Assembly: GCA_963802945.1 (NCBI GenBank) | Contig: CAWDKY010000029.1 | Span: 128,001 to 192,000, forward strand | Source: an uncultured delta proteobacterium | GTDB taxonomy: Bacteria; Desulfobacterota; RBG-13-43-22 | Reading direction: 5' to 3' | Length of the DNA: 64,000 nt | Shown here: positions 34,674-56,084 of the stretch, piece after piece | Numbering within the stretch: the first letter of the stretch is position 1 | How the letters are laid out: every line of letters starts with the position of its first letter | The notes under the pieces: model-generated | Told to the model about the DNA's origin: nothing | The model's input: the letters and a program-made list of their open reading frames with translations, nothing else | The model's database searches: none | Program-made: the position numbers and the translations under genes

Positions 34674-34680
34674 GGGGAAT

Positions 34681-35992: not shown

Positions 35993-36014
35993 GGAAAAGA
36001 CTTTTCAACCACCA

Positions 36015-39208: not shown

Positions 39209-39475
39209 ATGAACAAAAAGATTTACATCGCCAATTTATCCTTCCAAACCAGCGAACCTGAGATCAGAGTCCTTTTCTCCAAAGCGGGAGATGTCACCTC
39301 GGTTAAGATCGCCAAAGACAGGCAGACTGGTCAACCAAAAGGTTTTGCCTTCGTGGAGATGTCCACTCAGTGGGAGGCCCGGAGGGCTATCTCCATGCTT
39401 AATCAAACCGAGTTCAAGGGAAATACTTTGTTGGTAAAAGAGGCCATAGTCAGACGTGGCTTCGGTGAAAGATAA
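39209..39475 (+). CDS. RRM-domain RNA-binding protein
   Basis: IYIANL (RNP2), KGFAFVEM (RNP1). Confidence 0.92.
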   Translation: MNKKIYIANLSFQTSEPEIRVLFSKAGDVTSVKIAKDRQTGQPKGFAFVEMSTQWEARRAISMLNQTEFKGNTLLVKEAIVRRGFGER

Positions 39476-39739
39476 TAAACCTCGGTGTAGGAAAAGTCGA
39501 GGGTGCCGAATTTCCTTTGTTGTCCAAGACTTGCAGTAGATGTATACAGCTTCGCCTTGGACGCCTCGGATCTGCAATCTCCGAAACTTTGGCAACATCG
39601 AGATCTGCTTTACAATGTTCCTCATACTATCACTCCCGTGAAAGTGGGAATCAAGGTTGAAAATACAAGATTCCGGATCAAGTTTGATATGAATCTCCTT
39701 GTCGAAAGGCTTGCCCTTGACATTTAAAGGGAAAAAACA

Positions 39740-41326
39740 ATGAAAGTGCTTCTTGTCTACCCCAACTGCCCGGATACCTTCTGGAGTTTCAAGTATGCGC
39801 TGTCCTTCATATCCAAAAGGGCCGTTCAGCCACCACTCGGCCTGCTCACTGTGGCCGCCATGCTTCCTGAAGAATGGGGAAAAAGACTGGTCGATATGAA
39901 TGTTGCCGAGTTAAAAGACCAGGACCTTCAGTGGGCGGATTATGTGTTTATCAGCGCCATGACGGTCCAAAAAAAATCAGCCAAAGAAGTCATTTCCAGG
40001 TGCAAGGCATTGGGCGTTAAAATCGTGGCCGGCGGACCGCTCTTTACCGCTGCCTGCGAAGATTTCCCGGAAGTGGACCATCTGGTGCTCAATGAAGCCG
40101 AGATTACACTTCCTCTCTTTTTAAAAGATTTGGGTGAAGGCCACGCCGAAAATCTTTACACTTCCAAAGCATTTCCGGATTTGGAAAATACCCCGAGCCC
40201 TCTCTGGAAACTGGTTGAGATGAAAAGATATGTCTCCATGAATATTCAATATTCCCGGGGGTGTCCCTTTAGTTGTGAGTTCTGTGATATTACCACCCTT
40301 TTCGGCCACAGGGCTCGAATCAAAAGCGCAAGCCAGGTACTGGATGAATTAGAGACGCTCTATTCGCTTGGCTGGAGGGGCGGCGTCTTTTTTGTGGATG
40401 ATAATTTCATAGGCAATAAGAAGAAACTTAAGGAAGAGGTCTTGCCGGCCATGATCGACTGGATGAAGAAAAGAAAGTACCCCTTTAACTTTGCTACGGA
40501 AGTGTCCATAGATCTCGCCGATGATGAGGAATTGTTAAGACTGATGACCCGGACCGGTTTTGATAATGTTTTTGTCGGCATTGAGACGCCGGACGATCAG
40601 GCCCTGAAGGAATGCCGCAAATTCCAGAACAGAAACCGTGATCTCATCAGCAGTGTGGAAAGAATTCAGAAGTTCGGTTTAAATGTGCGAGGAGGCTTCA
40701 TCGTCGGATTTGATAGTGATTCTCCTGAAATATTTGATAGACAGATCGAATTCATTCAAAAAAGCAAAATTATTACAGCCATGGTGGGTATGCTGAATGC
40801 CCCGCGCGGTAGCCGGCTCTATGAGCGCCTTCAAAAAGAAGGCCGGTTGTTGAAAGAGGTAACCGGAGACAATACTGATTTTTCAACCAATATCATTCCC
40901 AAAATGGGTTACGAAAAGCTGGTCGAGGGATACAGAAAAATAGTCAGCCAAGTCTATTCTCCCAGATTATACTACGAGCGGGTGAAGGTATATCTAAGGG
41001 AGTACCGGCCTCCGGAAAAGAAAAAAATACACTTCCATTTCGGGTACCTCCGCTGGCATTTTTTGTATCTCGCCGCCCCTTTCAAGACCTTTGTATCATT
41101 AGGCATAAAGGATAAGGCCCGGTTCTATTACTGGAAGCTTCTTTTTTGGTCTTTGTTCAGGCGGCCTCAGCTTTTGCCTTTGGCCATAACGTATTCGATT
41201 TATGGATTTCATTTCCGAAAGATATTCAGATTAAATTTCGGGATCGATCCGATCAATCGGGGGGAAAGGGGGACTGGATTTGAACAGCGAAGTCAACCCC
41301 AGTGTCCTGTTAAGGGGAATACATAA
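39740..41326 (+). CDS. B12-binding radical SAM protein with DUF4070-type C-terminus (HpnP-like family)
   Basis: PDTFWSF, PPLGLLTVAA, SRGCPFSCEFC, FVDDNFIG, FIVGFDSD. Confidence 0.88.
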   Translation: MKVLLVYPNCPDTFWSFKYALSFISKRAVQPPLGLLTVAAMLPEEWGKRLVDMNVAELKDQDLQWADYVFISAMTVQKKSAKEVISRCKALGVKIVAGGPLFTAACEDFPEVDHLVLNEAEITLPLFLKDLGEGHAENLYTSKAFPDLENTPSPLWKLVEMKRYVSMNIQYSRGCPFSCEFCDITTLFGHRARIKSASQVLDELETLYSLGWRGGVFFVDDNFIGNKKKLKEEVLPAMIDWMKKRKYPFNFATEVSIDLADDEELLRLMTRTGFDNVFVGIETPDDQALKECRKFQNRNRDLISSVERIQKFGLNVRGGFIVGFDSDSPEIFDRQIEFIQKSKIITAMVGMLNAPRGSRLYERLQKEGRLLKEVTGDNTDFSTNIIPKMGYEKLVEGYRKIVSQVYSPRLYYERVKVYLREYRPPEKKKIHFHFGYLRWHFLYLAAPFKTFVSLGIKDKARFYYWKLLFWSLFRRPQLLPLAITYSIYGFHFRKIFRLNFGIDPINRGERGTGFEQRSQPQCPVKGNT

Positions 41327-41484
41327 CTTCCATGCCTAATTAACGATTTCCGATTGAAATCTTGTCTTTTTTCCAAATAGGAAATTTGACGCTTTCAGGA
41401 AGTACTTCTCAAGTTTCCTCGAACATGGCCGCACCGCACTGAATTCAACGAGTACACTTACAACTATTCTAATTGAAATGTGCA

Positions 41485-41518
41485 TAAAAAAAGGCAGGAC
41501 CATTGCGTCCCTGCCCTA
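41485..41518 (-). terminator. Intrinsic terminator downstream of the acyltransferase
   Basis: GGCAGGGAC-loop-GTCCTGCC followed by a U7 run. Confidence 0.6.
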
Positions 41519-41661
41519 ATAAGTTTATGGTTTCCATAGCCTCTTTTTTCCTGGGATGGATTCGGGAGCCGCAAAAGACTTGAATAACAACTCGCCGGCA
41601 AACACCTTACTTATGCGAACTTGATTCAAAATATCAAAAGCCTGATAGCGAATTGGTTTTT

Positions 41662-42264
41662 TCATGTTTTAGAATAAATAATAGCGGCGCTTGTTTTATC
41701 GGGATATTTGCCCTTAACAGTCAGATAAAAATTACTAATGGTCCGCATGTCTTGATCCAGATCGCCAGTGGGATATATTAGCGGTCCTGCTCCACCGGTT
41801 TTGCTAGCATAATCGAGAAACGCAAGCTGAATGGGAACATGGGCACTAACCGCAATATGATAAAACCCTGATTTCCAGTAACCTGTTTTATGACGGGTGC
41901 CCTCTGGAGTCAGGGCAAGAATAAATTTCTTGCTTTCATTGAAAGTAGATATCATTTGATCCACGATACGGCTTGCTAATGCCCTGTCGATCGGGATGCC
42001 TCCCAGCCACTTCATAAGTGGGGAGAAAGGCCAGCGGAACAATTCTTTTTTTGCTATAAAGCGGACGTCAAGGTTCAACGCGAAGGCCAGGATAATTCCA
42101 TAGAATAAGTCCCAGTTAGATGTGTGTGGTGCAAGAACAATGACATATTTGGCCTGACTGGGTAACGGCCCTTTTTTCTTCCAGCCGAGTATTTTTAAAA
42201 GAAACAGGGAGATACCAAGGAAAAATGCTTTTAAGACCGGTGTATTAAAAATGGTGTAACGCAT
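41662..42264 (-). CDS. Lysophospholipid/glycerol acyltransferase family protein
   Basis: APHTSNWD, GGIPIDR, PEGTR, WKSGFY. Confidence 0.9.
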   Translation of the reverse strand: MRYTIFNTPVLKAFFLGISLFLLKILGWKKKGPLPSQAKYVIVLAPHTSNWDLFYGIILAFALNLDVRFIAKKELFRWPFSPLMKWLGGIPIDRALASRIVDQMISTFNESKKFILALTPEGTRHKTGYWKSGFYHIAVSAHVPIQLAFLDYASKTGGAGPLIYPTGDLDQDMRTISNFYLTVKGKYPDKTSAAIIYSKT

Positions 42265-42439
42265 AACGTTTCACCCCTAATTTTTGATAGAACTTGCTTT
42301 TTGATGGGAAGAGTATAAGGCAAGAAAAGGACTGGGGCAAGGAGAAAAACAGGGCGGAAGAAAAAGGAGCAGGCACTTCAATAAAAAAGGGGGGGAATGT
42401 TCATTCATCCCCCTTCCTTTTTTGATGATTAACGAAAGG

Positions 42440-42643
42440 TTACAGAATCGTCACATTGGCTGCGGCTGGGCCTTTTGGGCCCTGCTCAATATCAAAGCTT
42501 ACCCGCTGGCCTTCTTGCAAGGTTCTAAATCCAGCCATACTGATGGCTGAGTGGTGGATAAAAACGTCTTTATCCTGACCGTCCACATCAATAAAGCCAA
42601 AACCTTTGTTCTCGTTAAACCACTTTACGCTTCCTTCTGCCAT
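42440..42643 (-). CDS. csp: Cold-shock protein
   Basis: [31 protein letters not shown]. Confidence 0.95.
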
Positions 42644-43246
42644 AGTCTTATCCCTCCTCCTGAATTATTTCTCAAGTTGGGATACGACATGCCAAAAAAA
42701 AAGCATCGAAGATAAATTCTCCGATGCCTGTGCTCACCGAATTGTTCACCAACTTCGACCGTCATTTACACCGTACGGAGTCCATAACGGGTTTCTTGTA
42801 TATAAGATAAGCCCTTTATTCAGATAAGTCAAGTACTCTTTTTCGCCGGCCTCTTTTCGTAAAGTGCGAATGTCAAACCTGAAGGAACAATGCCCATTCT
42901 TTTGGGCTGTTTGTTTCCTCACCAGAGCCCGGAATTTCTTGGGCCACGTCTTTAGCCTCCTCTTCCAGGGATTGGGCCTTGTTTAAGTGGGCGGCTAACG
43001 ATTATCGATTGAAATCTTTTCTTTTTATAAAAATTGAGATTTGAGGAGTTTAGGAAGTTATAATTATTTTCTCTACCAGTTTGCCCATACCAAATGAAGG
43101 CTGTTGGATCTTCCTTTTTCAGGGGTTCATAGTGGATTTGGATATTCAGTCTGCCAGCGACATATTCAATTTGGATCAGAAGTTCATTGTGGGTCAGAGA
43201 TTAAAATAACCATCAACCCACATAATATTCCAATAGTAGGCAATGT

Positions 43247-43453
43247 CTAAACTGGGCTAAGTATACTAAACATTTCTATCACTAAAGGACATGGCGATGT
43301 ATTTTTATCTACGTATTGACATTCTTCCTGATTGCATTTAACAAAATAATCTTTTTTATATTTGAGACCAAAATTAACTTTATTTTTTAGACAAATTTTA
43401 ACATCTTCACTGATCACTTTACAATAATAATCTTGAATGTTTCTTTTTGCCAT
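43247..43453 (-). CDS. Small Cys-rich hypothetical protein
   Basis: 68 aa, five Cys, low GC. Confidence 0.5.
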   Translation of the reverse strand: MAKRNIQDYYCKVISEDVKICLKNKVNFGLKYKKDYFVKCNQEECQYVDKNTSPCPLVIEMFSILSPV

Positions 43454-43621
43454 TTCTTATCCCTAATGAAAGGTTGCCCTTAAAAAAACTTAATAAAATT
43501 ATTTAAATATTTTATCTCTTATCTACTCAAAAGTCAATTGAGTTCAATCCCCGGTAGTGGGTCAGTTTGAAAAGAAGAGCTTTTATTTGCATATCTCATT
43601 CCCCTTGATAGTATATTTATT

Positions 43622-44407
43622 ATGGGGATCGTTTTTACTGTCATCCTTGGCCTTATTCAATTATTTTTGGCCGGATTGGGGGTTTTTGTGTCTCTAAAGC
43701 CCCCACAACCACGATATCATCGTTTATTAATTATTCTTTTTTTATTTTTAGGGATAGGAGGGATTATAATAGGAATATGCCAACAATACCAAAATAATTT
43801 AACATCAGAACAACTGATGGCCAAAATTATTAATATTGATAAAACGGCAGCAGAGATAGCGACAAATATTAAAAATTTTAAACCAAAAGAAACAGAAATC
43901 AGTAAAACTATTATTTCATCCCTAAAAATAAAAAAAGAACCTGAGATCCCAGAAAAATCCAAAGTTACAGAAAAGGAATCTATAAAGGATATTGAAAAAG
44001 GCATAACAGACCTAAAAAGAATGATCGCAGGACAAACATGGGGACTAAATGCGGAACAATTAATTAAATTATCTAAGCGGATGACACCGTTTGCAAAGAC
44101 GGAAGATAGGGGTGATTTAATTTGGTGTGTCTTAGGTGATTCCGACAGTACCAAGTTCGCTGTTAGTTTGGTGGCTGCTTTTAGGACTGCGGGATGGCAA
44201 CTTAAGGGATATTATGGCATGAATCAAGCTCTTTTTCCTGGAAACCCAACCGGAATAATAATAATTCTTAATTCAAAAGATGCAAACCCCGCAGGTGTAC
44301 GAGAGTTGATAATTACTTTGCGAGAATCTGGAATTGAACCAACCGAGGAAATTGATACCGATATTCCTCCCAACCATTTTCGCATCATTGTTGGAAGAAA
44401 GCCTTAG
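43622..44407 (+). CDS. Hypothetical membrane protein (two N-terminal TMs), low GC
   Basis: Long AT-rich ORF; no recognised family. Confidence 0.6.
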   Translation: MGIVFTVILGLIQLFLAGLGVFVSLKPPQPRYHRLLIILFLFLGIGGIIIGICQQYQNNLTSEQLMAKIINIDKTAAEIATNIKNFKPKETEISKTIISSLKIKKEPEIPEKSKVTEKESIKDIEKGITDLKRMIAGQTWGLNAEQLIKLSKRMTPFAKTEDRGDLIWCVLGDSDSTKFAVSLVAAFRTAGWQLKGYYGMNQALFPGNPTGIIIILNSKDANPAGVRELIITLRESGIEPTEEIDTDIPPNHFRIIVGRKP

Positions 44408-44527
44408 GAGAGACTATAATAATCCAATAATATCCTCAATCTCCCAAAGCCGTCACCCCCGCTTCCATTGCCGGAGTGTTCACGCCTCACATACAGCCTT
44501 CCTACCCACCTTAACGTTTTTATCAAC

Positions 44528-44669
44528 TGTAGCCAAAGTGTAACTGTCTTAACCGAAAATAACCCAATGTAACCCAAGCTAATCCAATTTGGTCTCTGTA
44601 ACTGATTGATATTTAAGGAGTTGAAATTTAACGGGAAATCGCCTTAGACAGTTCTTGACTATAAATCCC
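44528..44669. repeat. Direct repeat copy 1 (att site; includes duplicated 3' end of the tRNA methyltransferase gene)
   Basis: Aligns over ~140 bp with 55943-56084; minus strand encodes GIYSQELSKAISR*. Confidence 0.88.
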
Positions 44670-44760
44670 ACGACCCTCACGGTCACGTCGATTGAATTCT
44701 GACCTCCGGTGCCAACAGAAAAAATACAATGGGGTCCTTTGGGGCCCTTGCTTATAGATT

Positions 44761-44960
44761 CTATTGGCTGTTGCGCCTACCATCTTTCAGAATTCCTTCT
44801 TGCTGTCCATGTAATACCGGCCTGTCTTCTAAGTCTATTTTAGGCGCCTGTGCCCATGCTGTGCCTAACTTGTGCCGGTTGTCTTTTGTAATCCGATCTT
44901 GCTCGATAATATTGCCCCTCTCTTGATGGTACTCAACAACTTTTTTGGATGCCTCCCCAG
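44761..44960 (-). pseudogene. Probable tyrosine integrase C-terminal remnant with arm-type repeats
   Basis: EASKKVVEYHQER...HKLGT tail; TGTGCC x3 at exact 11-bp spacing (44849, 44860, 44871) next to the att repeat. Confidence 0.45.
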
Positions 44961-45063
44961 AAACGACTCCGCATAAGCAATACAAGATCAGCTAACTCAA
45001 GAAAATTCTTCCCTAATGGGACTTCGAAAGAATTCATCTGTTGAATACCATATAATTCTAGGT

Positions 45064-46365
45064 TTATTTATTTTTCAGATAGATAGTCTTAAGCTTATCC
45101 AGGCGATCCTTGGAGAAGAAGATGCAGTCCGTTTTTTGGGCCTCACCGGAAGCAATATCTAAGGCCAAGGTTCTGCAATTCGGTGTACCGCACAATCCGC
45201 AGTTAATTCCGGGCAGTGCGGCCAGCACGGTTTCAGCCTCCTGTCTTTTCTTGATACGCTCCTTTAAACTGCCCCCATCTTCTTTGAGTGGTCTTGGCAA
45301 AAGAGGTGCTTTAATGAAAAAATCTTCGTTGGGGTAACGTTTTTGTACTTCCGCTTCGATCCACGGATCCCTTCCGGGAAGTTCGGTAATCAAACGTTGT
45401 AGCTTGTTGACCGAAGCGTAGAAATTATCAACGGTCAGGTTCCCATTGATACATCCGGCCCAGCAGCTATAGCATTCCATGAAGTCTATGTTGCGCAGTT
45501 TCCCCTTTTCTATATCGTCGAAGACGCGAATGATATTCGACAAGCCGGTTAAAGAAAGATAACGATAGCCGTGAAGATTATCGAGTTGCCCTCTGGACAG
45601 TGACCACTGGAGCATCTGCCTGTCGAGATGAAAATCCTTTGATCGAAGCGTTTGATCGTTTTCCTTATGGGCATAGGTTGCCTCCAAAATGCCGTTGTAG
45701 ACATCGTGAAAAGAGATCGCCCCATCCAGATTGCTTTTAACTCCCTCGGCCGGGGTAAAAATAGACATGGTTTTCGCTTGACAGGAAGTTATATAGATGG
45801 CCGCCACCTCATCTTGGCTGATGCCCAGCTTGTCAGCGTATCTTAACTTTACCTCTCGGCCGGCGAGTTCACGGGGCGGCAGGATGGGGATAAGTTGTTC
45901 GACCATCTCAGGATAGGAGACTTGGATCAGCCTGACGACAACCGGGCAGGAGCTTGATATCAGGGGAAGGCGGCCTTTCCATTTTTCCACATAATCCCGA
46001 ATGGCCCGATTAATAAGGGCTACTTCGACCGCGAATGGCCAGACGGCATCAAAGCCGAGAGATTTGAGGCCCTCAACAATATGAGCGGGCGATACACCTG
46101 GTGGGAACTGGCCGAAGAGAACAGGCGAGGGGACAGCGACTTTATATTTGAAATCCCAGACTTCCTTTAGAGGGCGCGTTGCCGCCGATATCGCCCCGGA
46201 AGGGCAGGCCTTCAGGCAGGAGCCGCAATCAATACACAGTTCCGATAAAAGACTGGCCTTGCCTTCTTTGACCCGGATTGCCTGGGTAGGACAGACCCGC
46301 ATACAGGCCAGCTTACCTTGGCATTGGTTATAATCAATATTGAAGCTGTAGCTCTTTTCAGACAT
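45064..46365 (-). CDS. [FeFe]-hydrogenase-like putative sensory protein (group C/D-like) with ferredoxin and C-terminal FeS domains
   Basis: N-terminal 2x[4Fe-4S]; SSSCP, TSCQAK, ECYSCWAGCING H-cluster-like motifs; LPGINCGLCGTPNC. Confidence 0.85.
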   Translation of the reverse strand: MSEKSYSFNIDYNQCQGKLACMRVCPTQAIRVKEGKASLLSELCIDCGSCLKACPSGAISAATRPLKEVWDFKYKVAVPSPVLFGQFPPGVSPAHIVEGLKSLGFDAVWPFAVEVALINRAIRDYVEKWKGRLPLISSSCPVVVRLIQVSYPEMVEQLIPILPPRELAGREVKLRYADKLGISQDEVAAIYITSCQAKTMSIFTPAEGVKSNLDGAISFHDVYNGILEATYAHKENDQTLRSKDFHLDRQMLQWSLSRGQLDNLHGYRYLSLTGLSNIIRVFDDIEKGKLRNIDFMECYSCWAGCINGNLTVDNFYASVNKLQRLITELPGRDPWIEAEVQKRYPNEDFFIKAPLLPRPLKEDGGSLKERIKKRQEAETVLAALPGINCGLCGTPNCRTLALDIASGEAQKTDCIFFSKDRLDKLKTIYLKNK

Positions 46366-46795
46366 TCAGATTGTGCCTAATACGGGCCGAAAGCGTCGTT
46401 CCTTCCCCTACAGAGGATTCGATGATTAAATGGTCCGCATTCTTCCTAATGTTGGGCAATCCCATTCCAAAGCCAAAGCCCATCTCCCGCATCTCATCCG
46501 AGGCAGTCGAATAGCCTTCCTGCATGGCCTGGTCGATATCGGCTATGCCCGGACCTTTATCGGCAATTTCCAGATCGATTTCTTCGTCGGTGATGATAAA
46601 ATTCAGGGTTGCGGACTTGGCATACATGACGACATTCATCTCAGCCTCAAAGGCCACCACAACCGTCCGGCGTATGATGCCGGGATCGATATTGAGCCCT
46701 TTGAGTATTTCTTTTATTTCCGTCGAGGCCTCTCCTGCTCCATCAAAATTGCGGCCGTAAATCTTGAAAGCCTTTCTGAACAATTCTTCGGCCAT
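46358..46795 (-). CDS. RsbT-like anti-sigma regulatory Ser/Thr kinase (HATPase_c)
   Basis: EAEMNVVMYA, DKGPGI, GYSTA, GFGFGMGLPN, GEGT. Confidence 0.88.
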   Translation of the reverse strand: MAEELFRKAFKIYGRNFDGAGEASTEIKEILKGLNIDPGIIRRTVVVAFEAEMNVVMYAKSATLNFIITDEEIDLEIADKGPGIADIDQAMQEGYSTASDEMREMGFGFGMGLPNIRKNADHLIIESSVGEGTTLSARIRHNLNV

Positions 46796-46797
46796 GA

Positions 46798-47142
46798 CTA
46801 CATGGCCCCTTTCAGGCCATGTTCGCGCAAGATGCCGCAAACGTCGAACATCCCCAGCTCGGTCGCCAGGACGGGTATTCCCTTTTGCTGGGCAAAGTTG
46901 ATGGTCTTCTCATTCGGCCGCTTTCCGCGGATATAGACTATGGCTCGAACATCAGCCACATCAGCCGTCCTGACCGACTGGATATTGGTCAGACCGGTGA
47001 TCATCAGCGCCCCCGGGCAGTAAAAGGCTAAAATTTCACTCATCCCATCGGAGGCCACGACGCTATCTACTTCAAAGGACAGATCCGGATCGGGCGTCAG
47101 CAGTTCGCATTGTAAAATTCTTTTGATTTCTTTGAGCTTCAT
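46798..47142 (-). CDS. DRTGG-domain protein
   Basis: ASDGMSEILAF, LMITGLTNIQSVRTA, RGKRP. Confidence 0.85.
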   Translation of the reverse strand: MKLKEIKRILQCELLTPDPDLSFEVDSVVASDGMSEILAFYCPGALMITGLTNIQSVRTADVADVRAIVYIRGKRPNEKTINFAQQKGIPVLATELGMFDVCGILREHGLKGAM

Positions 47143-47158
47143 CTTGTCTTCGGCTTCT

Positions 47159-48553
47159 TCAGATTTTTAAAAGGGTTTCGTGTATCGATTTGGCCGCCTT
47201 CCTTCCGGCACCCATGGCACTGATAACCGTGGCTGCCCCGGTGACCACGTCGCCTCCGGCCCAAATTCTGTCGCGCGAGGTCTTTCCGGTCGCTTCATCG
47301 GCTTCAATATTCCCTTTCTTACCGACGGCCAGGCCCGGTGTGGTCATGGGAATCAGTGGATTCGGGCTGTTGCCGATAGCACAAACGACGGCATCGGCCT
47401 TCATTCTGAATTCAGAACCTATGATGGGTACAGGGCTCCGGCGTCCCGAAGCATCCGTTTCACCGAGTTCCATTTTTTGGCACTCGATTTCGGTCAGCCA
47501 GCCTTGCTCGTTACCGATAAGTCTTAAAGGTAAAGTCAGGAAGTCGAAAATAACCCCTTCTTCTTCGGCATTCTCCACTTCTTCCAGCCTGGCCGGTAAC
47601 TCTTCACGACTTCGACGATAGACGATGTGGGCTTCGTCCGCCCCCAGTCGTAAGGCGGTCCTGGCCGAGTCCATGGCCACGTTCCCGCCGCCGAAGACCG
47701 CCACTCTGGTCGGGCGCTTCATCGGGGTGTCACTGGCCGGAAACCGATAACCCTTCATCAGATTGCAGCGGGTAAGATACTCATTGGCCGAGTAGACGCC
47801 GTTCAGGTTTTCTCCCGGTATCCCCATAAACCAGGGCAGACCGGCTCCGGCTCCGATAAAGATGGCCTCGAACTCTTGTAGCAGGCTTTCGATCGTTCTG
47901 GTCTTGCCGATGATATAGTCCAGATAGAGTTTTACCCCCAGGCTTTTGACATATTCAACTTCGCGTTTGACAATGGCTTTCGGCAGCCGAAATTCAGGAA
48001 TGCCGTAAGTCAAGACGCCGCCCGCTTCGTGAAGGGCTTCATAGATATTGATTTCGTACCCGAGCAGCGCCAGATCATTGGCTACGGTAATGCCCGACGG
48101 GCCGGAACCGACTACGGCGATTTTTTTGCCGTTGAGAGGGGCCATTTCGGGTCTTTCACTCTTTCCATCAGCCGCTTCACGGTCCGATAAGAAGCGTTCA
48201 AGGCGTCCTATGGACACTGCCCCGCCCTTTTTGCCCAGAACACAACGACGCTCACACTGCTCTTCCTGCGGACAGACACGGCCGCAGACGGCAGGAAGGG
48301 CGTTCGTTTCTTTGATTTTTTTTATACCACCAATATAATCCCCTTCAACGATACAGTGGATAAAAGCCGGAATATTGATCCCCACCGGACAACCTTGACT
48401 GCACATGGGTTTTTTACAGTTCAGGCAGCGGCCCGCTTCTTCACGGGCCAGGACATCCGTATAACCCAGGGCAACCTCATCGAAATTTCTAATGCGTTCG
48501 AAAGGCTCCTGCTTCGGCATGTCCCGACGTTTATAATCGATCTCTTTGGCCAA
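47159..48553 (-). CDS. nfnB: NADH-dependent ferredoxin:NADP+ oxidoreductase large subunit (NfnB/SudA; GltD-like)
   Basis: RCLNC..P.C..GCP, CGRVCPQEEQC, GSGPSG, YGIPEFRLPK, GGGNVAMD. Confidence 0.9.
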   Translation of the reverse strand: MAKEIDYKRRDMPKQEPFERIRNFDEVALGYTDVLAREEAGRCLNCKKPMCSQGCPVGINIPAFIHCIVEGDYIGGIKKIKETNALPAVCGRVCPQEEQCERRCVLGKKGGAVSIGRLERFLSDREAADGKSERPEMAPLNGKKIAVVGSGPSGITVANDLALLGYEINIYEALHEAGGVLTYGIPEFRLPKAIVKREVEYVKSLGVKLYLDYIIGKTRTIESLLQEFEAIFIGAGAGLPWFMGIPGENLNGVYSANEYLTRCNLMKGYRFPASDTPMKRPTRVAVFGGGNVAMDSARTALRLGADEAHIVYRRSREELPARLEEVENAEEEGVIFDFLTLPLRLIGNEQGWLTEIECQKMELGETDASGRRSPVPIIGSEFRMKADAVVCAIGNSPNPLIPMTTPGLAVGKKGNIEADEATGKTSRDRIWAGGDVVTGAATVISAMGAGRKAAKSIHETLLKI

Positions 48554-48623
48554 CGCGCTCTACCTCCAAAATTAAAATGAGGGCTTGGAAATCAGTTCGA
48601 TCCTACAATTTTTCAATAAGGTA

Positions 48624-49457
48624 TCAAAAGTGAGAAGCGCAACCGCTTTTGCGTAACGGATGAACTTCTTCGGGATTGTAAGTCCGACGCCTATTCAGAA
48701 ATTCATCCCAGTCGACTTCATGACCGTCAAAGTCAGGACCGTCGACGCAGGCAAACTTGGTCTTACCGCCAACCGTAAGCCGGCAGACTCCGCACATCCC
48801 GGTCCCGTCGATCATGATGGGATTCATATTGACCATGGTCTTGATGCCCATCGGCTTGGTGACCTGCGAGACCTTCATCATCTGGAAAGTGCACCCGTTG
48901 ACGATGACCCGATCCGGCTTGATTTTTTCCAGGGTCAGTATCTCGGGCAGCCGGTTGAGATGCCCTTTGTACCCGGCCGTACCGTCACGGACGATCTCAA
49001 TCACCCGGTCCGAAACCGCTTTAAACCGATCCTGCCAATAAAGAAGATAGGAACTACGCGCCTCCAGGAGGGTATAAACCGTATTCCCCCTCTCCTTCAA
49101 GGCGCGGGCAATGGGATAAATACTTCCGATGCCGTAACAACCGCCGATGCAAAGCACGGTTCCGAAGTGATTGATTTCCGTCTCTCGACCGAGAGGTCCG
49201 GCATAAGTGGGAATCTCGTCACCGGGTTTGAGTCTGGCCAACTTGGCGGTTGATGCCCCTACTTGCATGAATATGCTGGTTACTAGGCCGGTTTCTTTAT
49301 CCCAATCGGCAACGGAAAGAGGAATGCGCTCACCGTTTTCATCCGGCCGGACTATGACGAAATTGCCCGGACGAATGGATCCGGCGACGTCCGGTGCTTC
49401 GATTGTAAATTCGTGCAGGTTGGGAACGATCATCCGGCGTTCGATTACTCGATACAT
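48624..49457 (-). CDS. nfnA: Nfn small subunit (NfnA/SudB)
   Basis: GERIPLS, GPLG, PIMIDGTGMCGVCR, FACVDGPDFDGH. Confidence 0.9.
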   Translation of the reverse strand: MYRVIERRMIVPNLHEFTIEAPDVAGSIRPGNFVIVRPDENGERIPLSVADWDKETGLVTSIFMQVGASTAKLARLKPGDEIPTYAGPLGRETEINHFGTVLCIGGCYGIGSIYPIARALKERGNTVYTLLEARSSYLLYWQDRFKAVSDRVIEIVRDGTAGYKGHLNRLPEILTLEKIKPDRVIVNGCTFQMMKVSQVTKPMGIKTMVNMNPIMIDGTGMCGVCRLTVGGKTKFACVDGPDFDGHEVDWDEFLNRRRTYNPEEVHPLRKSGCASHF

Positions 49458-49528
49458 CTTTTACCTTCCCCAAATGGTTTACAAATTAATAAGGGGCTTG
49501 GCTGAAAGCCCACTTCTTTGCAAATTAC

Positions 49529-49597
49529 GTCATGCCGGACTTGATCCGGCATCCAGGGATTTGGGTTTTTCTGGACCCCGGCTTTCGCCGGGGTGAC
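49529..49597. repeat. REP-like double-hairpin repeat (GTCAT...CCAG / CTGG...TGAC)
   Basis: Related copies at 28269-28295, 58257-58356 and 61379-61443. Confidence 0.7.
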
Positions 49598-49694
49598 GGC
49601 AATACATGATCTGAAAAATTTAGGCCTGGTTTACATCGTTCTTTTAAGGTCCCCGTAGGGCGGACAAATTAAACCCCGGTCCTATCGGGGCCAA

Positions 49695-52236
49695 TTATTT
49701 ACTTTTCTGATCCATAGCTTTCCCTGCCGGCCGCACAATGACCTTGATCGGATTGGCTTTTAACCGATAGAGCGGCTCTAAGTTTTGGCGAGCGGTTAAA
49801 CCTCCAAAACTGGACGGCTTATAAAAATAGATCACCCCTGCCGGGCAATCCGCATCGGCCTTGGCCATCACGGCGATCTCAAGACCGGTTACTGAAATAG
49901 CCATCTGATCTCCATCCTGGATACCCAGCCTGATGAGATCGTCGGGATTCATCCGGAAGCCTTCTTCCAAGGCCAGTTCGGAAAGCCCTTCCACGACATA
50001 GGAAAGATCAATACCGCGATGCCTGAAACCGGCCGGCTCGGCGATGAGCAGATAATCACCTGGTCCTTTGACAGGTTTCTTGAAACGGTCGATCGGAAGA
50101 TCGATCCGTGGTCTAAGGAGACGCGGCTCTCTATCCGGCATCTCAGGAAATTCTGGAACGGTTTGATGGATCTCCTTCCGGATGTCCTCCGCCTTAGTGT
50201 ATGGCAGGGCCGTGCAATCAAGCTTTTGGGCCAATTCGGAAAAGATGGTCCAATCAGGTCGGACAAAACCGGTAACGGCGCTGTCCGGAAGGTCCTCGAT
50301 CTTTATCAGCTCCTGGACTCTACCCTCTATGTTGGTAATGGTCCCTTCGGCTTCAGCAAAGCTGGCGGCTGGAAGGAAGGCATCGATCTCAAATGGCGGA
50401 TAGTAAATATCCTGGGCAATGACATATTCACAATCCGGCCGCTCAAAGAAAGGGACTTCTCCCACCAGGTAAATCACCTTCGGTTTTTTGCGCTTTTCGA
50501 TGACCTCGGCCAAGGAAATCCCTTTGTTTTTCGAGGGTCCGATCCCAGGAAGCAGTTCACCGAAGACCCCAAGTTCAAAGGCGCCTCTGACATTCGTCCC
50601 GTTGTATAGAGGCATAAAGATCGTCTCCGGGCGCTTGGCCAATCTCAAAACCGCCTCGAACATTTTTTCATTGCGGTCATATCCCAAAACTGTCGGCCCG
50701 ATGATGACCGCCAAATTTTTGCCTGAGGCGATGGCTTCTATGGCTTTTTGGAGCTGGTCTTTATCAACCCCGGCCTGGAGAGCAATCTTTTTGAGATCGC
50801 ATTTCTCTTTCTCTAAGCTTTGGGCTAGTGTCTCAAGGATGAGCCCTTCCTGAGTAGGAGTCGGCTTTAACGAAAAATCCGTATAACGGACCAGGTTCGA
50901 ATCACGGGCGTCGACGGTGATCAGCTGAGCCCCTTTCTGCAAGGCACGCCGGATTTGGACTCCGATCACGGAGAAATAAAAGCGGGAATCAAGACCGATG
51001 GCGATAATGGAATCGGCCTCGGCTATACCCTTGATCGAGATGGGCAGAGAGAAGAGTTTGGTCCACAGGCCCAGTCCGCCCGGCAGGTTAAGACGGGCGG
51101 TGGAATCGATACTATCACTGCCCAGGCACTCTCGGACAAACTTTTGGGCGCTGTAAAGACTTTCGTTGGTCAGATCGGCTGAGACGACCATCAGGAATTC
51201 CTCGGGTTTGAGGCCTTTGAGCCTGCCGGAAACCTCCTCCAGGGCTTCGTTCCAGGTTACTTCGCGGAAATATTTTCCCTTCCTGAGCATCGGCTTTTTA
51301 GTCCGCTCGTGATAATGGGTCGTCTCCGGCAGGGAGAAGCGACCGCGCACACAGAGTTGGCCATCGTTGATCTCGGCCTCCAGGTTGGGAAGGACTTTTG
51401 AAAGCCGTCCGTCCTTGTGAACCAGTTCAAGGCGGCATCCGATCCCACAGAAGGGACAGGTCGAGACCAAGGTCCCATCGGGCTTTCCGTCCCACTTTGA
51501 GCTCTTCTCGGCCAAGGCCCCGGTCGGACAGACCGAAACACAGGCCCCACAGAACTCGCAGCCGGCCTGAATGTGGCTTTTACCAAAGGCCGGGCCGATC
51601 TGAACCTTTGGCCCTCGGTATTTAAAGGCCAGGATCGAGGTCCCGCGCACTTCCTGACACATTCGTACACAGCGGCCGCAAAGGATGCATATATTATAGT
51701 CTCGATCGAAAAAAGGATCATCATGCTCGGCTTCATAACCGCGGTAATACACCGGATAGGTTATTTCGGTTACCCCCACTTTTTCCACGACGGTTTGCAG
51801 TTCACATTGGCCGTCATTTGGACAATAGCGGCAGCCGGTGGCCACGCCGGTTTTCCGGATGGTGTACTGATATTGCTTGCACTCCTCTTTTTCAGAGCAA
51901 ACCAGACAGACTCGAGGGATGTTCGCTGAGGATGAGTTGGAGGATCTCCTGGCGCATATCTCGCAACGTGGCCGTATCGGTAAGAACTTTCATGCCTTCC
52001 TGGGCGACGGTGCTGCAGGCCAAGGGATAGCCCCTCATGCCCTCGATCTCCACCACACACATCCGGCAACCGCCGAAAGGAGAGAGATCTTTATGGGAGC
52101 AGAGCGAGGGAATATAGATATGGTTTAATTCCGCAGCCCTCAGAACGGTAACCCCTTCCGAAAAATGGATCGGGCGATGGTCGATTTCCATTTTCAAAGC
52201 AGGTCTAATGTTGGCTTGGGTTTCTTTGGCAGTCAC
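49695..52236 (-). CDS. NuoG/FdhF-like FeS protein with molybdopterin-oxidoreductase fold but no Mo-ligand Cys/Sec (one +1 frameshift ~51910)
   Basis: IPSLC..GGCRMC [2Fe-2S], HPS.C, CILCGRCVRMC, CEFCGACVSVCP, CPFCGIGC..LCVRG; SIDSTARLNL where FDH has the catalytic C/U-H. Confidence 0.82.
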
Positions 52237-52243
52237 GGTAGCC

Positions 52244-54115
52244 TCACGATTCAATAACGATGGCGTCGCCGGCAATAGCGTCAAAACGGCAGATTTCATA
52301 GCAGGATCGACATTTGATGCATTTACTCTCGTCCAGATTGTGCGGCTCCGAACGTGGACCGACGATAGCCCCGGTCGGACAGACTTGGACGCAACGCTGG
52401 CAACCCGTACATTTTTCTTTAATGATTCGATAAACAACCAGATCCCGGCAAACGGCGGCCGGACAGCGTTTGTTCATGATGTGGGCCAGAAACTCTTCCC
52501 GGAAATATTTCAGTGCACTTAAAACAGGATTCGGGGCCGTCTGACCCAGCCCACAGAGAGAGGCCCCTTTGATGGCGCCGGACAAGCGCTCCAGTTTGGC
52601 CAGATCTCCGATCTCTCCCTTGCCCTGACATATTTTGGTCAGGATATGGACTAAGTGTCGGGTCCCGATACGGCAGGGAACACATTTCCCGCAGGATTCG
52701 GCCTGGGTGAAGCTGAGGAAATATTTGGCCGTATCGACGATGCAGGTGTCTTTATCGATGACGATCAGACCGCCCGATCCCATAATGGAACCGGCCGCAG
52801 CCAGATTCTCGTAGTCAATAGGCGTATCCAGAAATTCTTTTCCCAGACACCCCCCGGAAGGGCCGCCGGTTTGGACCGCTTTGAACTCCTTGACCAATCC
52901 ACCGCCGATATCGTAAATCACTTGGCGCAAGGTACTGCCCAGCGGAACTTCGATCAGACCGGTGCGCCTGACCTTACCGACCAGACTGAAGGTTTTGGTC
53001 CCTTTGGATGTTTCCGTCCCATACTTCGAATACCATTCGGCGCCGTTGCGGATAATGTTCGCCAGGGTCCCTAAGGTTTCAACGTTGTTGATAACCGTGG
53101 GTTGCCCCCATAGCCCCGATACGGGCGGGAAGGGCGGACGGGTGCGCGGCATCCCTCTTTTCCCTTCAATACTGGCCATCAAGGCTGTCTCTTCTCCACA
53201 AACAAAAGCGCCCGCGCCCTCCTTGATCTTGATATCAAAGCTGAACTCGCTTCCCAGTATGTTATCGCCGAGAAGGCCCATTTCACGCAGGACGGCGATA
53301 GCCCCCTTCAGCCGCTCGATGGCCAGCGGATATTCCGACCGGATATAGATGTAACCCTGGCTGGCGCCGATTCCATAGGCGGCGATCAACATACCTTCCA
53401 GCAAGGCATGGGGATCCCCTTCTATTAGGGATCGATTCATAAAGGCCCCGGGATCACCTTCGTCGGCATTGCAGATCAGATAACACTGTAGGCTTTCGGT
53501 TTCCCGGCAGAATAGCCACTTGCGCCAGGTGGGAAATCCGGCACCACCGCGTCCACGCAGGCCGGAATTTTTAACGATCTCCAGGACCTCCTGCCAAGAC
53601 AAGGACAGGCATTTTTCAATCGCTTTGTATCCGTCACGGGCCAGATAGTGATCGATATCTTCGGGATCGATGATACCGCAATTTCTCAAGACGATGCGCA
53701 CCTGGTGAACCAGCATCGGATGCTCAAAAAATTTGGGTAGACCATCGATGGGTTCTTGGCCGAAGTGGCCTATCAGGCGGGGTTTATACACTTCGCCTTT
53801 TTCGAAAAATGATTCCAGAATGCGGCCGACGCTATCGGGATTAACATTCGAATAACTGATGCGCGGTTTCCCGGGCATCTGGATATCGACCAGCGGTTCC
53901 AGATAGCAGGGCCCGATGCAGCCGACTTTAATGAGGTCCGCCGTCAGCTTCTTAGCGCTTAGATAGGATTCCAAGGCTCCGATGACTTCGGTGGCTCCGG
54001 CCGCAAGTCCGCATGAGCCGGCTCCGACAAAGATGACCGGGCGTTGGTTGTTTTGAAGTTCAGCCCATTTCTTTTCGGCTTTTCTGCGACGTTGCTCAAG
54101 TTTTTTTATGTTCAT
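52244..54115 (-). CDS. nuoF: NuoF/HydB-type FMN- and NADH-binding subunit with C-terminal 2x[4Fe-4S]
   Basis: LRGRGGAGFPT, NADEGDPGAF, GAFVCGEET, SCGKCVPCRIG, CTGCQRCVQVCP, CIKCRSCYEIC. Confidence 0.92.
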   Translation of the reverse strand: MNIKKLEQRRRKAEKKWAELQNNQRPVIFVGAGSCGLAAGATEVIGALESYLSAKKLTADLIKVGCIGPCYLEPLVDIQMPGKPRISYSNVNPDSVGRILESFFEKGEVYKPRLIGHFGQEPIDGLPKFFEHPMLVHQVRIVLRNCGIIDPEDIDHYLARDGYKAIEKCLSLSWQEVLEIVKNSGLRGRGGAGFPTWRKWLFCRETESLQCYLICNADEGDPGAFMNRSLIEGDPHALLEGMLIAAYGIGASQGYIYIRSEYPLAIERLKGAIAVLREMGLLGDNILGSEFSFDIKIKEGAGAFVCGEETALMASIEGKRGMPRTRPPFPPVSGLWGQPTVINNVETLGTLANIIRNGAEWYSKYGTETSKGTKTFSLVGKVRRTGLIEVPLGSTLRQVIYDIGGGLVKEFKAVQTGGPSGGCLGKEFLDTPIDYENLAAAGSIMGSGGLIVIDKDTCIVDTAKYFLSFTQAESCGKCVPCRIGTRHLVHILTKICQGKGEIGDLAKLERLSGAIKGASLCGLGQTAPNPVLSALKYFREEFLAHIMNKRCPAAVCRDLVVYRIIKEKCTGCQRCVQVCPTGAIVGPRSEPHNLDESKCIKCRSCYEICRFDAIAGDAIVIES

Positions 54116-54554
54116 TTAAAATCCCCTGAAGCTTCAAGACCGACATCTGGGCGTAGGTTTTTTCATTCAGTGTGACTACCGGGGCCAGCGCGCAACAACC
54201 CAAGCAGACTACCCGTTCAAGGTCATACTCGCCGTCGGCCGTAGTCTCCCCCGGGTTTACCTCGAACCGCCGTTTGATGACCTCAAGCATCTGTTCTCCG
54301 CCTTTGACATGACAGGCTGTTCCCAGACATACTTTAATATGATTTTTACCTCTTGGTGTGAAGCGAAATTGGGCATAAAAAGTGGCCACGCCATATATTT
54401 CGTTTTCCGAAATCTTGAGCCATCTCGATATGCGCTCGATCGCCTCCCGGGGAAGATATCCGTAAATGGACTGTATCTTATGAAGGACAGGAACGATATC
54501 AGCACGCTCTCCTTTGAATTCCTGCTTAAGGTCGGCTAATGGGTCTTTGGGCAT
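54096..54554 (-). CDS. nuoE: NuoE/HydC-type [2Fe-2S] subunit
   Basis: GVATFYAQF, VCLGTACHVKG, CLGCCALAP. Confidence 0.92.
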   Translation of the reverse strand: MPKDPLADLKQEFKGERADIVPVLHKIQSIYGYLPREAIERISRWLKISENEIYGVATFYAQFRFTPRGKNHIKVCLGTACHVKGGEQMLEVIKRRFEVNPGETTADGEYDLERVVCLGCCALAPVVTLNEKTYAQMSVLKLQGILNEHKKT

Positions 54555-54645
54555 AAACACAACCCTCCTCAGGACGCTATTCGCCCCAGTCAAATATGGA
54601 ATTCATCGTTGTCTAAAGAAAAGGATCGATAATCCAGCCTAGGCT

Positions 54646-54975
54646 CTATTTTATCCCGAGTTTTGTGAGCTTTGAGGCGAGGGTCCAGGCATCAACCGAA
54701 GTAGTAAAAAGTCCGATTCCGACCTTATTGGCCAGTTCGATTAAGTCAGGAGCGGGCTTTTTACCTTTGACAAAAACAACCGCCGCAACATCGACCAAGT
54801 TGGCGGCCGCAATAAGGCTCTTGTTGGTCTGAAGGGTTATCAAAAGCAAATTGGCTTTGGTCAAAGTGATTAAATCGGAGACCATATCCGAAATATAGAC
54901 TCCTTCGATTTCTTTGTCTTTATAGACATTGACTGCTTTAAGACCGCATTTTTTACTGACCTCCGATAGCTTCAT
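54646..54975 (-). CDS. DRTGG-domain protein
   Basis: GVYISDMVSDLI, LITLQTN, VKGKKP. Confidence 0.82.
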   Translation of the reverse strand: MKLSEVSKKCGLKAVNVYKDKEIEGVYISDMVSDLITLTKANLLLITLQTNKSLIAAANLVDVAAVVFVKGKKPAPDLIELANKVGIGLFTTSVDAWTLASKLTKLGIK

Positions 54976-55009
54976 GTTTCCCCCTTTTTCTTTTACTGGT
55001 GACTCTGTA

Positions 55010-55531
55010 TTAATACATATCAGTAAGTCCCTTATCGGCTATCATTATTCCTTCACATCTATCGATTTTGCAGCATTGATTACATGGGACGATCACGATC
55101 TTCTTGCCCAAAGTTTTTATGTTTTGGTTGAAGTATTCATTGAGGGCCTTGATCCCTTTGCCGCTTACACATTTGCCTTTGGGGTGACTGCTGTCGGCGC
55201 AGAGGGCCACATAGACCATTGTCCCTGGCCCTTCGTTTATCCTAATCTGGGCGACCGTACATTCAGGGTCTTTGCAGGTCGATATCATCAGTCCCATCAT
55301 ATCGTTAAGATTGATGAGCCTTTGACATTTTGTGCATTTAAGATTGAATTTAATCGATTGTGAGCTTCCTAAATAAATCCAGAAGTGGTCTCCTTCCCGA
55401 TATTCGTCGACCGGTGCGACGGGTTCCTCGGAAAAGAATGAAATCCGACCTCCGCATTTTGGACAGCCTTCAACCACGAAGTATCCATAGCGGATATCGG
55501 CCATTTCCCATTTATGTTTACAACTACCCAT
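55010..55531 (-). CDS. Cys-rich hypothetical (putative metal-binding) protein
   Basis: CPKC, CTKC, CKDPEC, CNQCC motifs; GGAGG RBS before MGSCKHKW. Confidence 0.75.
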   Translation of the reverse strand: MGSCKHKWEMADIRYGYFVVEGCPKCGGRISFFSEEPVAPVDEYREGDHFWIYLGSSQSIKFNLKCTKCQRLINLNDMMGLMISTCKDPECTVAQIRINEGPGTMVYVALCADSSHPKGKCVSGKGIKALNEYFNQNIKTLGKKIVIVPCNQCCKIDRCEGIMIADKGLTDMY

Positions 55532-55942
55532 TGATCCTCCAATGCTTCTCATTATATTAAGGGGCTAATAATATCGACAAAATTTTTTACCAGGGAACTG
55601 AAGGTCTTCTTTTCGATCAATCCAAAAATCTCGCTGAATGAAACAAAAAACCCCACCTCTCTATCGGGAAATGGGGTCTATTATTCTTCCATCGACACTC
55701 CTTTTTACAAAAGTTGCCAAAAAGAAAAAAAGATTATATTCAAGTTGTTAATATTTAATCTAAATATTTTTTAAAGTCAACTAATTTTATGGATTTTTAT
55801 TAATTACCATTGAACTCTTGCGTTTTTAAAAAATGGAAGTTTGAAAATTTTAGGAAGAAATGTTTTTACCTTAAACCACAAATGAATCTAACAGCAAATT
55901 CCATTTTGATCCTTCACTGTTTATATCCTGATTTTCTTCAAG

Positions 55943-56084
55943 TGTAACTAAAGTGTAACCGTCCTAACCGAAAATAACCCAAAATAACTCACGCTATTCC
56001 AAGATGGTCTCAGTAACTGATTGATATTTAACGAACTGAATTTAGACGGGAAATCGCCTTAGACAGGTCTTGGCTATAAATCCC
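55943..56084. repeat. Direct repeat copy 2 (att site overlapping the trmN6 3' end)
   Basis: Aligns with 44528-44669; TAAC repeats at ~10-11 bp spacing. Confidence 0.88.

Follow-up and report, generated by a model that had tools for sequence, protein, structure and literature searches.

A candidate oxidoreductase combining a Bfu-type core with NfnAB, encoded by a conserved gene cluster in an uncultured delta proteobacterium

We analyzed a stretch of 64,000 nucleotides (nt) from an uncultured delta proteobacterium (GTDB lineage Bacteria; Desulfobacterota; RBG-13-43-22), taken from contig CAWDKY010000029.1 of assembly GCA_963802945.1 (positions 128,001 to 192,000 of the forward strand). This whole stretch is called the window, and all coordinates are positions in it. 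Five neighboring genes encode a NuoE-like, a NuoF-like and a NuoG/FdhA-like protein followed by NfnA and NfnB, and all five were found on the minus strand, as an earlier sequence-only reading had listed them. The first three resemble the soluble Bfu (HydABC-like) enzymes, with a large subunit that has lost its metal ligands, and the linkage of this module to NfnAB is conserved across many phyla. The five genes, together with the frameshift that interrupts one of them, are as follows.

54096..54593, minus strand: BfuC/NuoE/HydC-like [2Fe-2S] thioredoxin-like subunit, 165 amino acids (aa) from a TTG codon (PF01257, 7.2e-48); the likely start is the ATG at 54554
52244..54115, minus strand: BfuB/NuoF/HydB-like flavin mononucleotide (FMN) and NADH subunit, 623 aa, from motifs and alignment to solved BfuB
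51895..52191, minus strand: BfuA-like large subunit, N-terminal fragment with the [2Fe-2S] Fer2_4 domain, to ...SEHPSS, from Pfam and frame reading
51906..51912, minus strand: frameshift, a single surplus base (t on the minus strand, about 51910), between HPSS and CLVC, from frames and homologues
49695..51908, minus strand: large subunit, main part, 737 codons, iron-sulfur motifs and a degenerate molybdopterin-oxidoreductase fold, from Pfam, NCBIfam and alignments
48624..49457, minus strand: NfnA/NfnS, flavin adenine dinucleotide (FAD), NAD(H) and [2Fe-2S] subunit, 277 aa
47159..48553, minus strand: NfnB/NfnL, FAD, NADP(H) and 2x[4Fe-4S] subunit, 464 aa

Judged from its sequence, the NuoF-like protein is a BfuB of the bifurcating type, with all bifurcation-type motifs kept. 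Its N-terminal domain carries GSCG...GCIGPC, and it has in addition GRGGAGFP, GGPSG and CGKCVPC...SLCGLG; the HxxxxxCPxxxC site (the His/Cys B2 site) reads HIMNKRCPAAVC; and the C-terminal end holds two CxxCxxCxxxC [4Fe-4S] motifs, the motifs named including CTGCQRCVQVCP and CIKCRSC. The likeness to HydB that had been proposed from the N-terminal iron-sulfur domain, the HxxxxxCPxxxC site and the C-terminal cluster pair is confirmed by alignments that run from end to end of four solved BfuB proteins: 9bov_B of Caldicellulosiruptor saccharolyticus NfnABC (E-value 3.8e-223), 7t2r_B of A. mobile NiFe-HydABCSL (5e-220), 9n5u_B of T. sibiricus NfnABC (9.8e-217) and 8oh5_B of S. ovata Stn (1.2e-216). 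The NCBIfam model TIGR01959 gives 473 bits, below its cut-off of 559. The NuoE-like BfuC has the motifs CLGTAC and CLGCC, and its gene overlaps the start of bfuB. The pair thus has what characterizes the Bfu family, a BfuB with an FMN/NADH domain and a complete extra cluster set, with BfuC beside it. The features of a respiratory NuoEFG N-module are not those seen here: the cluster has no nuo membrane genes, and BfuB has the extra clusters.

The large subunit had been described as a full iron-sulfur wire on a molybdopterin-oxidoreductase fold, with neither an H-cluster nor the Cys/Sec-His pair of formate dehydrogenases, and our analysis agrees on each point. Pfam finds Fer2_4, Fer4_Nqo3, Molybdop_Fe4S4 and Molybdopterin domains in the two fragments, no match in either to the H-cluster domain (Fe_hyd_lg_C, PF02906), and no Pyr_redox or Fer4_20 domain. 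The nearest solved relative is a Rhodobacter capsulatus-type FdsA (6tg9_A, 1.7e-55), whose active-site TDTCARVCHS pairs with IDSTARLNLP in the window, the metal-ligand Cys being replaced by Asn and the catalytic His by Leu. We read the same columns in a family alignment of 59 rows, made up of the window protein and 58 loci from the 69 that passed a coverage filter (three duplicate or partial loci and seven others were left out). The Cys/Sec column holds Cys in 0 of 59 rows (17 Glu, 16 Phe, 11 Ser and others), and the catalytic His column holds His in 0 of 59 (39 Leu, 19 Tyr, 1 Phe). Eighteen cysteines and one histidine are invariant in all 59, and these fit one His-type and one further CxxCx5C triad, two ferredoxin-type motifs and the MopB cluster motif.

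Homologues of this protein are named 'formate dehydrogenase alpha subunit' and its best solved relatives are of the FdsA type, as would be expected if it were a genuine molybdenum or tungsten (Mo/W) formate dehydrogenase, the set then being an ordinary Fdh-Bfu enzyme beside NfnAB. The two empty columns of the 59-row alignment, and the variability of the ligand column, speak against this, as do the family scores: the Fdh-alpha model (TIGR01591) gives 196 bits where its cut-off is 666, and the Molydop_binding domain falls under the Pfam cut-off. We regard a formate dehydrogenase as highly improbable. The NuoG model likewise stays under its cut-off, at 201 against 470 bits. Mo/W binding by the large subunit, which would have refuted the sequence-only reading, finds no ligand for it in any row. 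Taken with the N-terminal [2Fe-2S] site, the motifs amount to a long wire of iron-sulfur clusters built on a degenerate pterin fold. StnC and the large subunit (NfnA) of the C. saccharolyticus enzyme have the inactive NuoG/Fdh-like domain in common with it (8oh5_C, 6.5e-33; 9bov_A, 2e-36), and in both it is reported as an inactive Fdh-like domain (PMC10482914; here and below, statements drawn from a cited source refer to the part of its text that was available).

Two consecutive CxxCx5C triads, CLVCSEKEEC and CRYCPNDGQC, lie in residues 1-35 of the main fragment and are invariant in 59 of 59 rows. The alignment to FdsA covers the second of them only; the first could be an extra cluster or metal site peculiar to this family of large subunits.

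The sequence-only reading had treated the large subunit as one gene, which in the window it is not. The first 99 codons (52191..51895) end in ...LILSEHPSSLSGLL followed by a stop, and the remainder runs from 51908 in another frame, one surplus base at about 51910 parting ...SEHPSS from CLVCSEKEEC. Intact homologues of 822-889 aa run unbroken through LILSEHPSSCLVCSEKEEC. Two metagenome contigs of about 96% identity, from two studies (peat and wetland), are each one base short at 51910. No near-identical contig spans 51842-51977, and no sequencing run contained more than 27% of the sampled words.

If the frameshift is real, the cluster could be a dead relic in the source organism, a horizontally acquired operon that has been inactivated. 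The frame is broken in the assembly and the extra base lies outside any homopolymer; searches of 13 same-genus and 7 same-family genomes did not turn up the cluster; and a second NfnB elsewhere in the genome, of 61% identity, could make the cluster dispensable. Against this, there are no other lesions: the large subunit is otherwise 87% identical over its full length to its nearest relative (P0002), the remaining nine genes of the cluster are all open, and the relatives of about 96% identity are without the extra base. Moreover, in about 82 kilobases (kb) of the assembly, a reading that was not systematic, we met three clean single-base frameshifts, this one included. The second interrupts a StnC-like GltD-NuoG fusion gene on contig C11 (L098, about 4570), which is left as frames of 271 and 743 aa by one extra G, CTTGGAAGG standing where CTTGAAGG would stay in frame. 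The third falls after ...GARTKDLL in a stand-alone nfnA on contig C15 (L100, about 2766), next to an intact nfnB of 470 aa that encodes the second NfnB. Because of these two further frameshifts, and because the large subunit has no other lesion, an assembly error is likely, rather than a pseudogene. The break may still be a recent inactivation, and we treat the relic as a rather unlikely reading.

The two genes downstream encode what looks like a fully competent NfnAB, both subunits being canonical in sequence. NfnB aligns with Thermotoga maritima NfnB (4ylf_B) over residues 9-461 at 2.5e-160; its CPQEEQCE stretch pairs with CPQEVQCE, which makes it an NfnB of the T. maritima/Pyrococcus furiosus type, and the Arg of EFRLPK, near flavin N5, is kept at position 187. 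Its families are PF14691 (9.4e-41), PF07992 and TIGR01316 (571 bits, cut-off 472). NfnA aligns with P. furiosus NfnS (5jca_S) over residues 1-264 at 4.1e-79 and with 4ylf_A at 3e-67, has the stretch DGTGMCGVC...FACVDGP in common with 5jca_S, and scores 345 bits on NCBIfam NF004862, where the cut-off is 220. In other words, the expected equipment is present in both: two [4Fe-4S] clusters, FAD and an NADPH site in NfnB, and a PyrK-like FAD/NAD subunit with [2Fe-2S] in NfnA.

We then asked how widely the two modules occur together. A protein search found 2,043 relatives of the large subunit at E <= 1e-20 among 8,000 scored candidates. The best 120 of these are 61-100% identical to it and come from metagenome-assembled genomes labelled Syntrophobacteraceae, Phycisphaerae, Planctomycetota, Aminicenantales and others; most are named 'formate dehydrogenase alpha' or 'YjgC'. 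Contigs from a collection with one genome per species gave at least 599 pattern matches, of which at least 571 encode a relative, and we studied the best 80 of these, ranked by match to the large subunit. The 80 loci come from Planctomycetota/Phycisphaerae, Acidobacteriota/Aminicenantes, Krumholzibacteriota, WOR-3, Eisenbacteria, Actinomycetota/Thermoleophilia, Anaerolineae, Zixibacteria, Ignavibacteria, Latescibacterota, Gemmatimonadota, Desulfobacterota and Syntrophorhabdus.

Wherever a locus leaves room for it, the linkage holds. The large-subunit gene is directly followed by nfnA in 72 of the 72 loci with at least 900 nt of room, and nfnB comes next in 66 of the 66 with at least 2.5 kb. 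On the other side, nuoF is directly upstream in 58 of the 67 loci with at least 2.3 kb of room, and in 6 more it is found elsewhere in the locus. The stop of the large subunit and the start of nfnA overlap by 1-17 nt in 35 of 73 loci. Three in-frame fusions of the large subunit with NfnA were found, one in locus L048 and two in the protein collection (P0057, 1,153 aa; P0102, 1,138 aa); among proteins of 1,291-3,685 aa, the search for longer fusions gave just one match, a Stn-like protein of 29% identity. NfnAB here is accordingly not the free-standing two-subunit enzyme, a large subunit preceding it in all 72 loci. That a catalytically empty HydABC/Bfu-like module is linked to a complete NfnAB, as the sequence-only reading had it, is thus borne out by a neighborhood survey of the kind it had called for, and the lack of a conserved nfnAB linkage that would have refuted it is not seen.

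These observations also bear on the possibility that the cluster encodes two separate enzymes under common regulation, NfnAB acting alone and the NuoEFG-like trio serving a partner encoded elsewhere, for example as NADH/ferredoxin input module of an 11-subunit Nuo complex, or together with some other catalytic subunit. In T. maritima and P. furiosus, NfnAB functions without partners (PMC10482914, PMC12018979). The one nuoH of the genome lies on contig C25, away from all four nuoF-like genes, so that a headless Nuo complex is possible, and a membrane-bound Nuo-Bfu enzyme has been predicted by Schut et al. (PMC9304861). Against two independent enzymes stand the overlaps, the three fusions and a linkage kept in many phyla, for nfnA in 72 of 72 loci and for nfnB in 66 of 66. 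The cluster has no nuo membrane genes, and because it is an insertion missing from five congeners, a native Nuo complex cannot depend on it. We judge two separate enzymes to be unlikely.

The explanation that we prefer, and think probable though by no means secure, is that the five core genes encode one soluble, cofactor-rich Bfu oxidoreductase whose third-substrate module is a complete NfnAB, in the place that a hydrogenase, a formate dehydrogenase or a fused GltD domain takes in other members. A BfuA without a catalytic site needs such a module, and NfnAB is the sole candidate that is always adjacent, translationally coupled and sometimes fused; this is why we assign it the role. In the proposed enzyme, BfuB (with FMN, the NAD(H) site and the ferredoxin-side clusters) and BfuC would form the bifurcating core. 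The large subunit would be the descendant of an NAD-linked formate dehydrogenase alpha subunit after loss of the Mo/W site, now serving as scaffold and iron-sulfur wire, for which one [2Fe-2S] and as many as five [4Fe-4S] sites are available. NADPH would be oxidized at the NfnB flavin, an FAD next to the NADP(H) site. We think the most likely path for the electrons would lead from the NfnB [4Fe-4S] pair through the large-subunit wire to the flavin/cluster site of BfuB, as in Stn/NfnABC, where NAD(H) and ferredoxin would both be served; NfnA would add a second FAD/NAD(H) branch. Such an enzyme would join the NADPH, NADH and ferredoxin pools, and in its most conservative version it would be a split Stn-like enzyme. 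Gene spacing suggests that the five core genes are co-transcribed. A scan for promoters and terminators gave counts of 15 (11.8 in shuffled sequence) and 20 (15.3), which we judged to be no excess. A complex prediction that paired the MopB part of the large subunit (residues 140-737 of the main fragment, 59 rows) with NfnA (64 rows) scored 0.00, where the mark was 0.32, and counts neither for nor against a complex.

Several points weigh against a single complex. In the window the large-subunit gene is interrupted, and nfnA does not follow it immediately, as the sequence-only reading had stated: 237 nt separate the stop from the nfnA start, the median in relatives being an 8-nt overlap, and this gap contains a hairpin. 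The 80 loci studied are those that match the large subunit best, and at least 491 others lie outside the sample. Since NfnAB is complete and self-sufficient elsewhere, its co-location could reflect co-regulation alone. In a composite, NAD(H) would have two sites and ferredoxin possibly two, and the net reaction repeats that of either module, which leaves the selective advantage unexplained. Finally, Supplementary Table 1 of PMC9304861 may contain clusters of this kind.

The two bifurcating centers of the sequence-only reading might work in series as a redox amplifier, a version of the single enzyme that we consider rather doubtful. The NfnB flavin would split the electron pairs of NADPH, the high-potential electron passing via NfnA to NAD+ and the low-potential electron via the Mo-less wire to the Bfu core, where a second bifurcation would take place. 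The stoichiometry would be about 4 NADPH + 3 NAD+ + 2 Fd(ox) -> 4 NADP+ + 3 NADH + 2 Fd(red), where Fd is ferredoxin, and by our own arithmetic, with E' values of -380, -280 and -500 mV (PMC9304861), ferredoxin could reach about -680 mV.

Among known systems, the closest to the enzyme we propose is Stn/NfnABC (S. ovata StnABC, 8OH5; C. saccharolyticus, 9BOV; T. sibiricus, 9N5U), also called Nfn-Bfu or Type 1 Bfu. It has the same BfuBC-type core, and the BfuB of the window is closest to those of these enzymes; the large subunit likewise contains an inactive NuoG/Fdh-like domain; and the core takes its input from a GltD/NfnB-type NADP(H) flavin module. In Stn, however, the large subunit contains the GltD-like domain as an insert, an NfnA homologue is reported to be absent, and the cluster ligand is Lys rather than Glu (PMC10482914), whereas the window cluster has NfnB as a separate canonical subunit with CPQE, and an NfnA that is never missing and in some cases forms one protein with the large subunit. 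The fusion of a GltD/NfnB-like domain into BfuA without NfnA, which marks Type 1, is therefore not what the window shows. From NfnAB/NfnSL itself (T. maritima 4YLF, P. furiosus 5JCA), to which both subunits align over their full length, the window type differs in being tied to a Bfu core where the known enzyme stands alone.

Other enzymes offer partial parallels. In Type 3 Bfu, represented by A. mobile NiFe-HydABCSL (7T2R), a BfuABC scaffold with a BfuA that lacks a catalytic site receives electrons from added subunits. Besides the BfuB match given above, its BfuA aligns with the large subunit at 2.8e-41; the added module there is a NiFe hydrogenase, whereas in the window cluster it is a bifurcating flavoenzyme. 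Class II benzoyl-CoA reductase, Bam[(BC)2DEFGHI]2, combines Bfu/HydBC-type BamGHI with a second bifurcating module (10.64898/2026.04.10.717634, PMC9304861), which is HdrA-type with a tungsten site, in contrast to NfnAB with no further catalytic site. FdsABG of R. capsulatus (6TG9) likewise has a NuoE/NuoF-like diaphorase, and it keeps the Cys-His pair where the window has Asn-Leu; its FdsB-type subunit is described as lacking the extra bifurcation-type clusters (PMC9304861).

Extra subunits are known from an established class of Bfu enzymes (PMC9304861), and the coupling of a Bfu-type module to a second bifurcating module in benzoyl-CoA reductase, reported in a 2026 preprint, indicates that hierarchical bifurcation coupling occurs in nature (10.64898/2026.04.10.717634). 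In the literature searched, which did not extend to Supplementary Table 1 of PMC9304861, we found NfnAB nowhere described as joined to a NuoEFG-like set, and the Stn paper alone contains every one of the five gene names as a whole word. No such cluster is described in the available text of PMC9304861, PMC10482914, PMC12018979, PMC13689815, PMC6405883, PMC7483475, PMC3903129 or PMC11406978. Of these, a 2019 review of Nfn gives four gene patterns, with Nuo-like partners in none of them in the part available (PMC6405883). The gene arrangement is thus seemingly undescribed; in kind the proposed supercomplex is less unprecedented than was suggested, as a GltD/NfnB-like domain is already combined with a Bfu core in Stn/NfnABC (PMC10482914).

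Nfn and Bfu have been treated as alternative, unrelated solutions to transhydrogenation, organisms typically having one or the other (PMC7483475, PMC12018979). A cluster that hard-wires the two together would challenge this either/or picture, and it would be a second natural example, after benzoyl-CoA reductase, of hierarchically assembled bifurcation modules. It is spread over Planctomycetota, Acidobacteriota, Actinomycetota, Zixibacteria and Desulfobacterota, and at least 571 stretches in the one-genome-per-species collection encode a relative of the large subunit. Metabolic reconstructions of abundant anaerobes of sediment, peat and wetland would change, as the genes are at present annotated as 'formate dehydrogenase', 'NADH dehydrogenase' and 'glutamate synthase'. 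Should the series version be true, hundreds of uncultured anaerobes would possess a widespread soluble source of extra-low-potential electrons that draws on NADPH alone, regulated by a redox sensor that derives from a hydrogenase but has lost the H-cluster.

The five genes named by the sequence-only reading are present as the core of a larger unit that it had missed, a ten-gene cluster (minus strand, 55552..45064) with a hydrogenase-like sensor cassette, whose genes recur in 31-32 of 41 wide loci. The accessory genes are as follows.

55010..55552, minus strand: Cys-rich protein, first gene of the cluster, 180 aa, of no family; homologue in 31 of 41 wide related loci
54646..54975, minus strand: DRTGG-domain protein 1, 109 aa (PF07085); 31 of 41 wide loci
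46798..47142, minus strand: DRTGG-domain protein 2, 114 aa, from Pfam; 32 of 41 wide loci
46358..46840, minus strand: histidine-kinase-like ATPase-domain protein, 160 aa (PF02518 and PF13581); 32 of 41 wide loci
45064..46365, minus strand: [FeFe]-hydrogenase-like protein resembling the HydS sensory type, 433 aa (PF02906, 9.4e-26, and motifs)

The Cys-rich protein has no Pfam or NCBIfam match, and its Atlas hits reach at most 0.83 with no family. The last protein has the motifs SSCP, CQAK, ECYSCWAGC and a C-terminal Cx2Cx4Cx16C, a set that we assume to match HydS-type sensory hydrogenases, SSCP presumably standing where the TSCCP motif is expected. The HydG family had no match in the source genome, which markers put at 100% completeness, nor in five complete genomes that carry the cluster (G041-G045), and HydF matched only below cut-off. 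Because of this, a true H-cluster is unlikely, and the protein is probably HydS-like without one. We considered a catalytic role for it and set this aside as unlikely, HydG being unmatched in 6 of 6 genomes. A hydrogenase-fold protein is, in other words, conserved without an H-cluster maturation system (HydG in 0 of 6 genomes). The Cys-rich, two DRTGG, HATPase and HydS-like genes may together be a regulatory or redox-sensing remnant of HydABC operons.

The cluster lies in DNA that is particular to this strain, and the features that delimit it are as follows.

31836..56027, no strand: 24.2-kb insertion specific to the strain, flanked by dciA, which ends at 31835, and by the 3' end of a methyltransferase gene (56028)
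44517..44669, plus strand: 153-nt direct repeat, left copy, 85% identical to the right copy
55932..56084, plus strand: 153-nt direct repeat, right copy; the two repeats bracket the ten-gene cluster exactly

Among the same-genus genomes fetched, 5 of 5 have dciA next to the methyltransferase (MTase) gene, in the order PALP-dciA-MTase-DUF1015; in the window the two are 24.2 kb apart. No large-subunit ortholog was found in the 13 same-genus and 7 same-family genomes, where the best match is 30-36% identical. The G+C content of the cluster is 52-54% and that of its flanks 37-46%. Horizontal acquisition of the cluster, within the 24-kb insertion, is well supported. The 153-nt repeat has two copies only in the genome, is absent from congeners and from the 80 related loci, and matches no Rfam family at gathering score. 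The cluster had been said to sit on a mobile island: an insertion it is, relative to all five congeners, but a scan of 57 window proteins found no match to an integrase, transposase or phage family, and the sole tRNA sits 2.3 kb outside the insertion.

The insertion is a mosaic of low-GC accessory genes, an intron RNA without an open reading frame (ORF), an ORF with an rpoZ-MoaC fragment, and the ten-gene cluster. The intron is seen at 35101-35823 (minus strand) as two group II domain matches about 450 nt apart (RF02003, 73 bits; RF00029, 45 bits) with no reverse-transcriptase ORF between them, and looks like an ORF-less group II intron. The 152-aa ORF at 37656-38114 (minus strand) has a complete RpoZ (Rpb6) domain and the first 41 or so positions of MoaC, then a stop; the rest of MoaC is found in no downstream frame, and the ORF is a gene remnant in the low-GC DNA of the insertion.

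A few further observations concern other loci and the rest of the window. In one acidobacterial locus (L016, 16832-19025), a second and more distant nfnAB (42% and 55% identity) lies directly downstream of the ten-gene cluster. Elsewhere in the source genome (G000:C30:159256-161613) a frame of 1,026 aa combines NuoF (Complex1_51K) with a GltD/NfnB-like domain of 40% identity and appears to be a NuoF-GltD fusion; a NuoF/GltD-like juxtaposition resembling it stands upstream of the large subunit in locus L041. At 151-21562 the window holds a run of ketoacyl-synthase genes, at least six in number, accompanied by thioesterases, an ApeI-like dehydratase, a short-chain dehydrogenase/reductase (SDR), and acyltransferase, glycosyltransferase and B12-binding radical SAM genes, which together are a lipid or aryl-polyene-like biosynthetic cluster.

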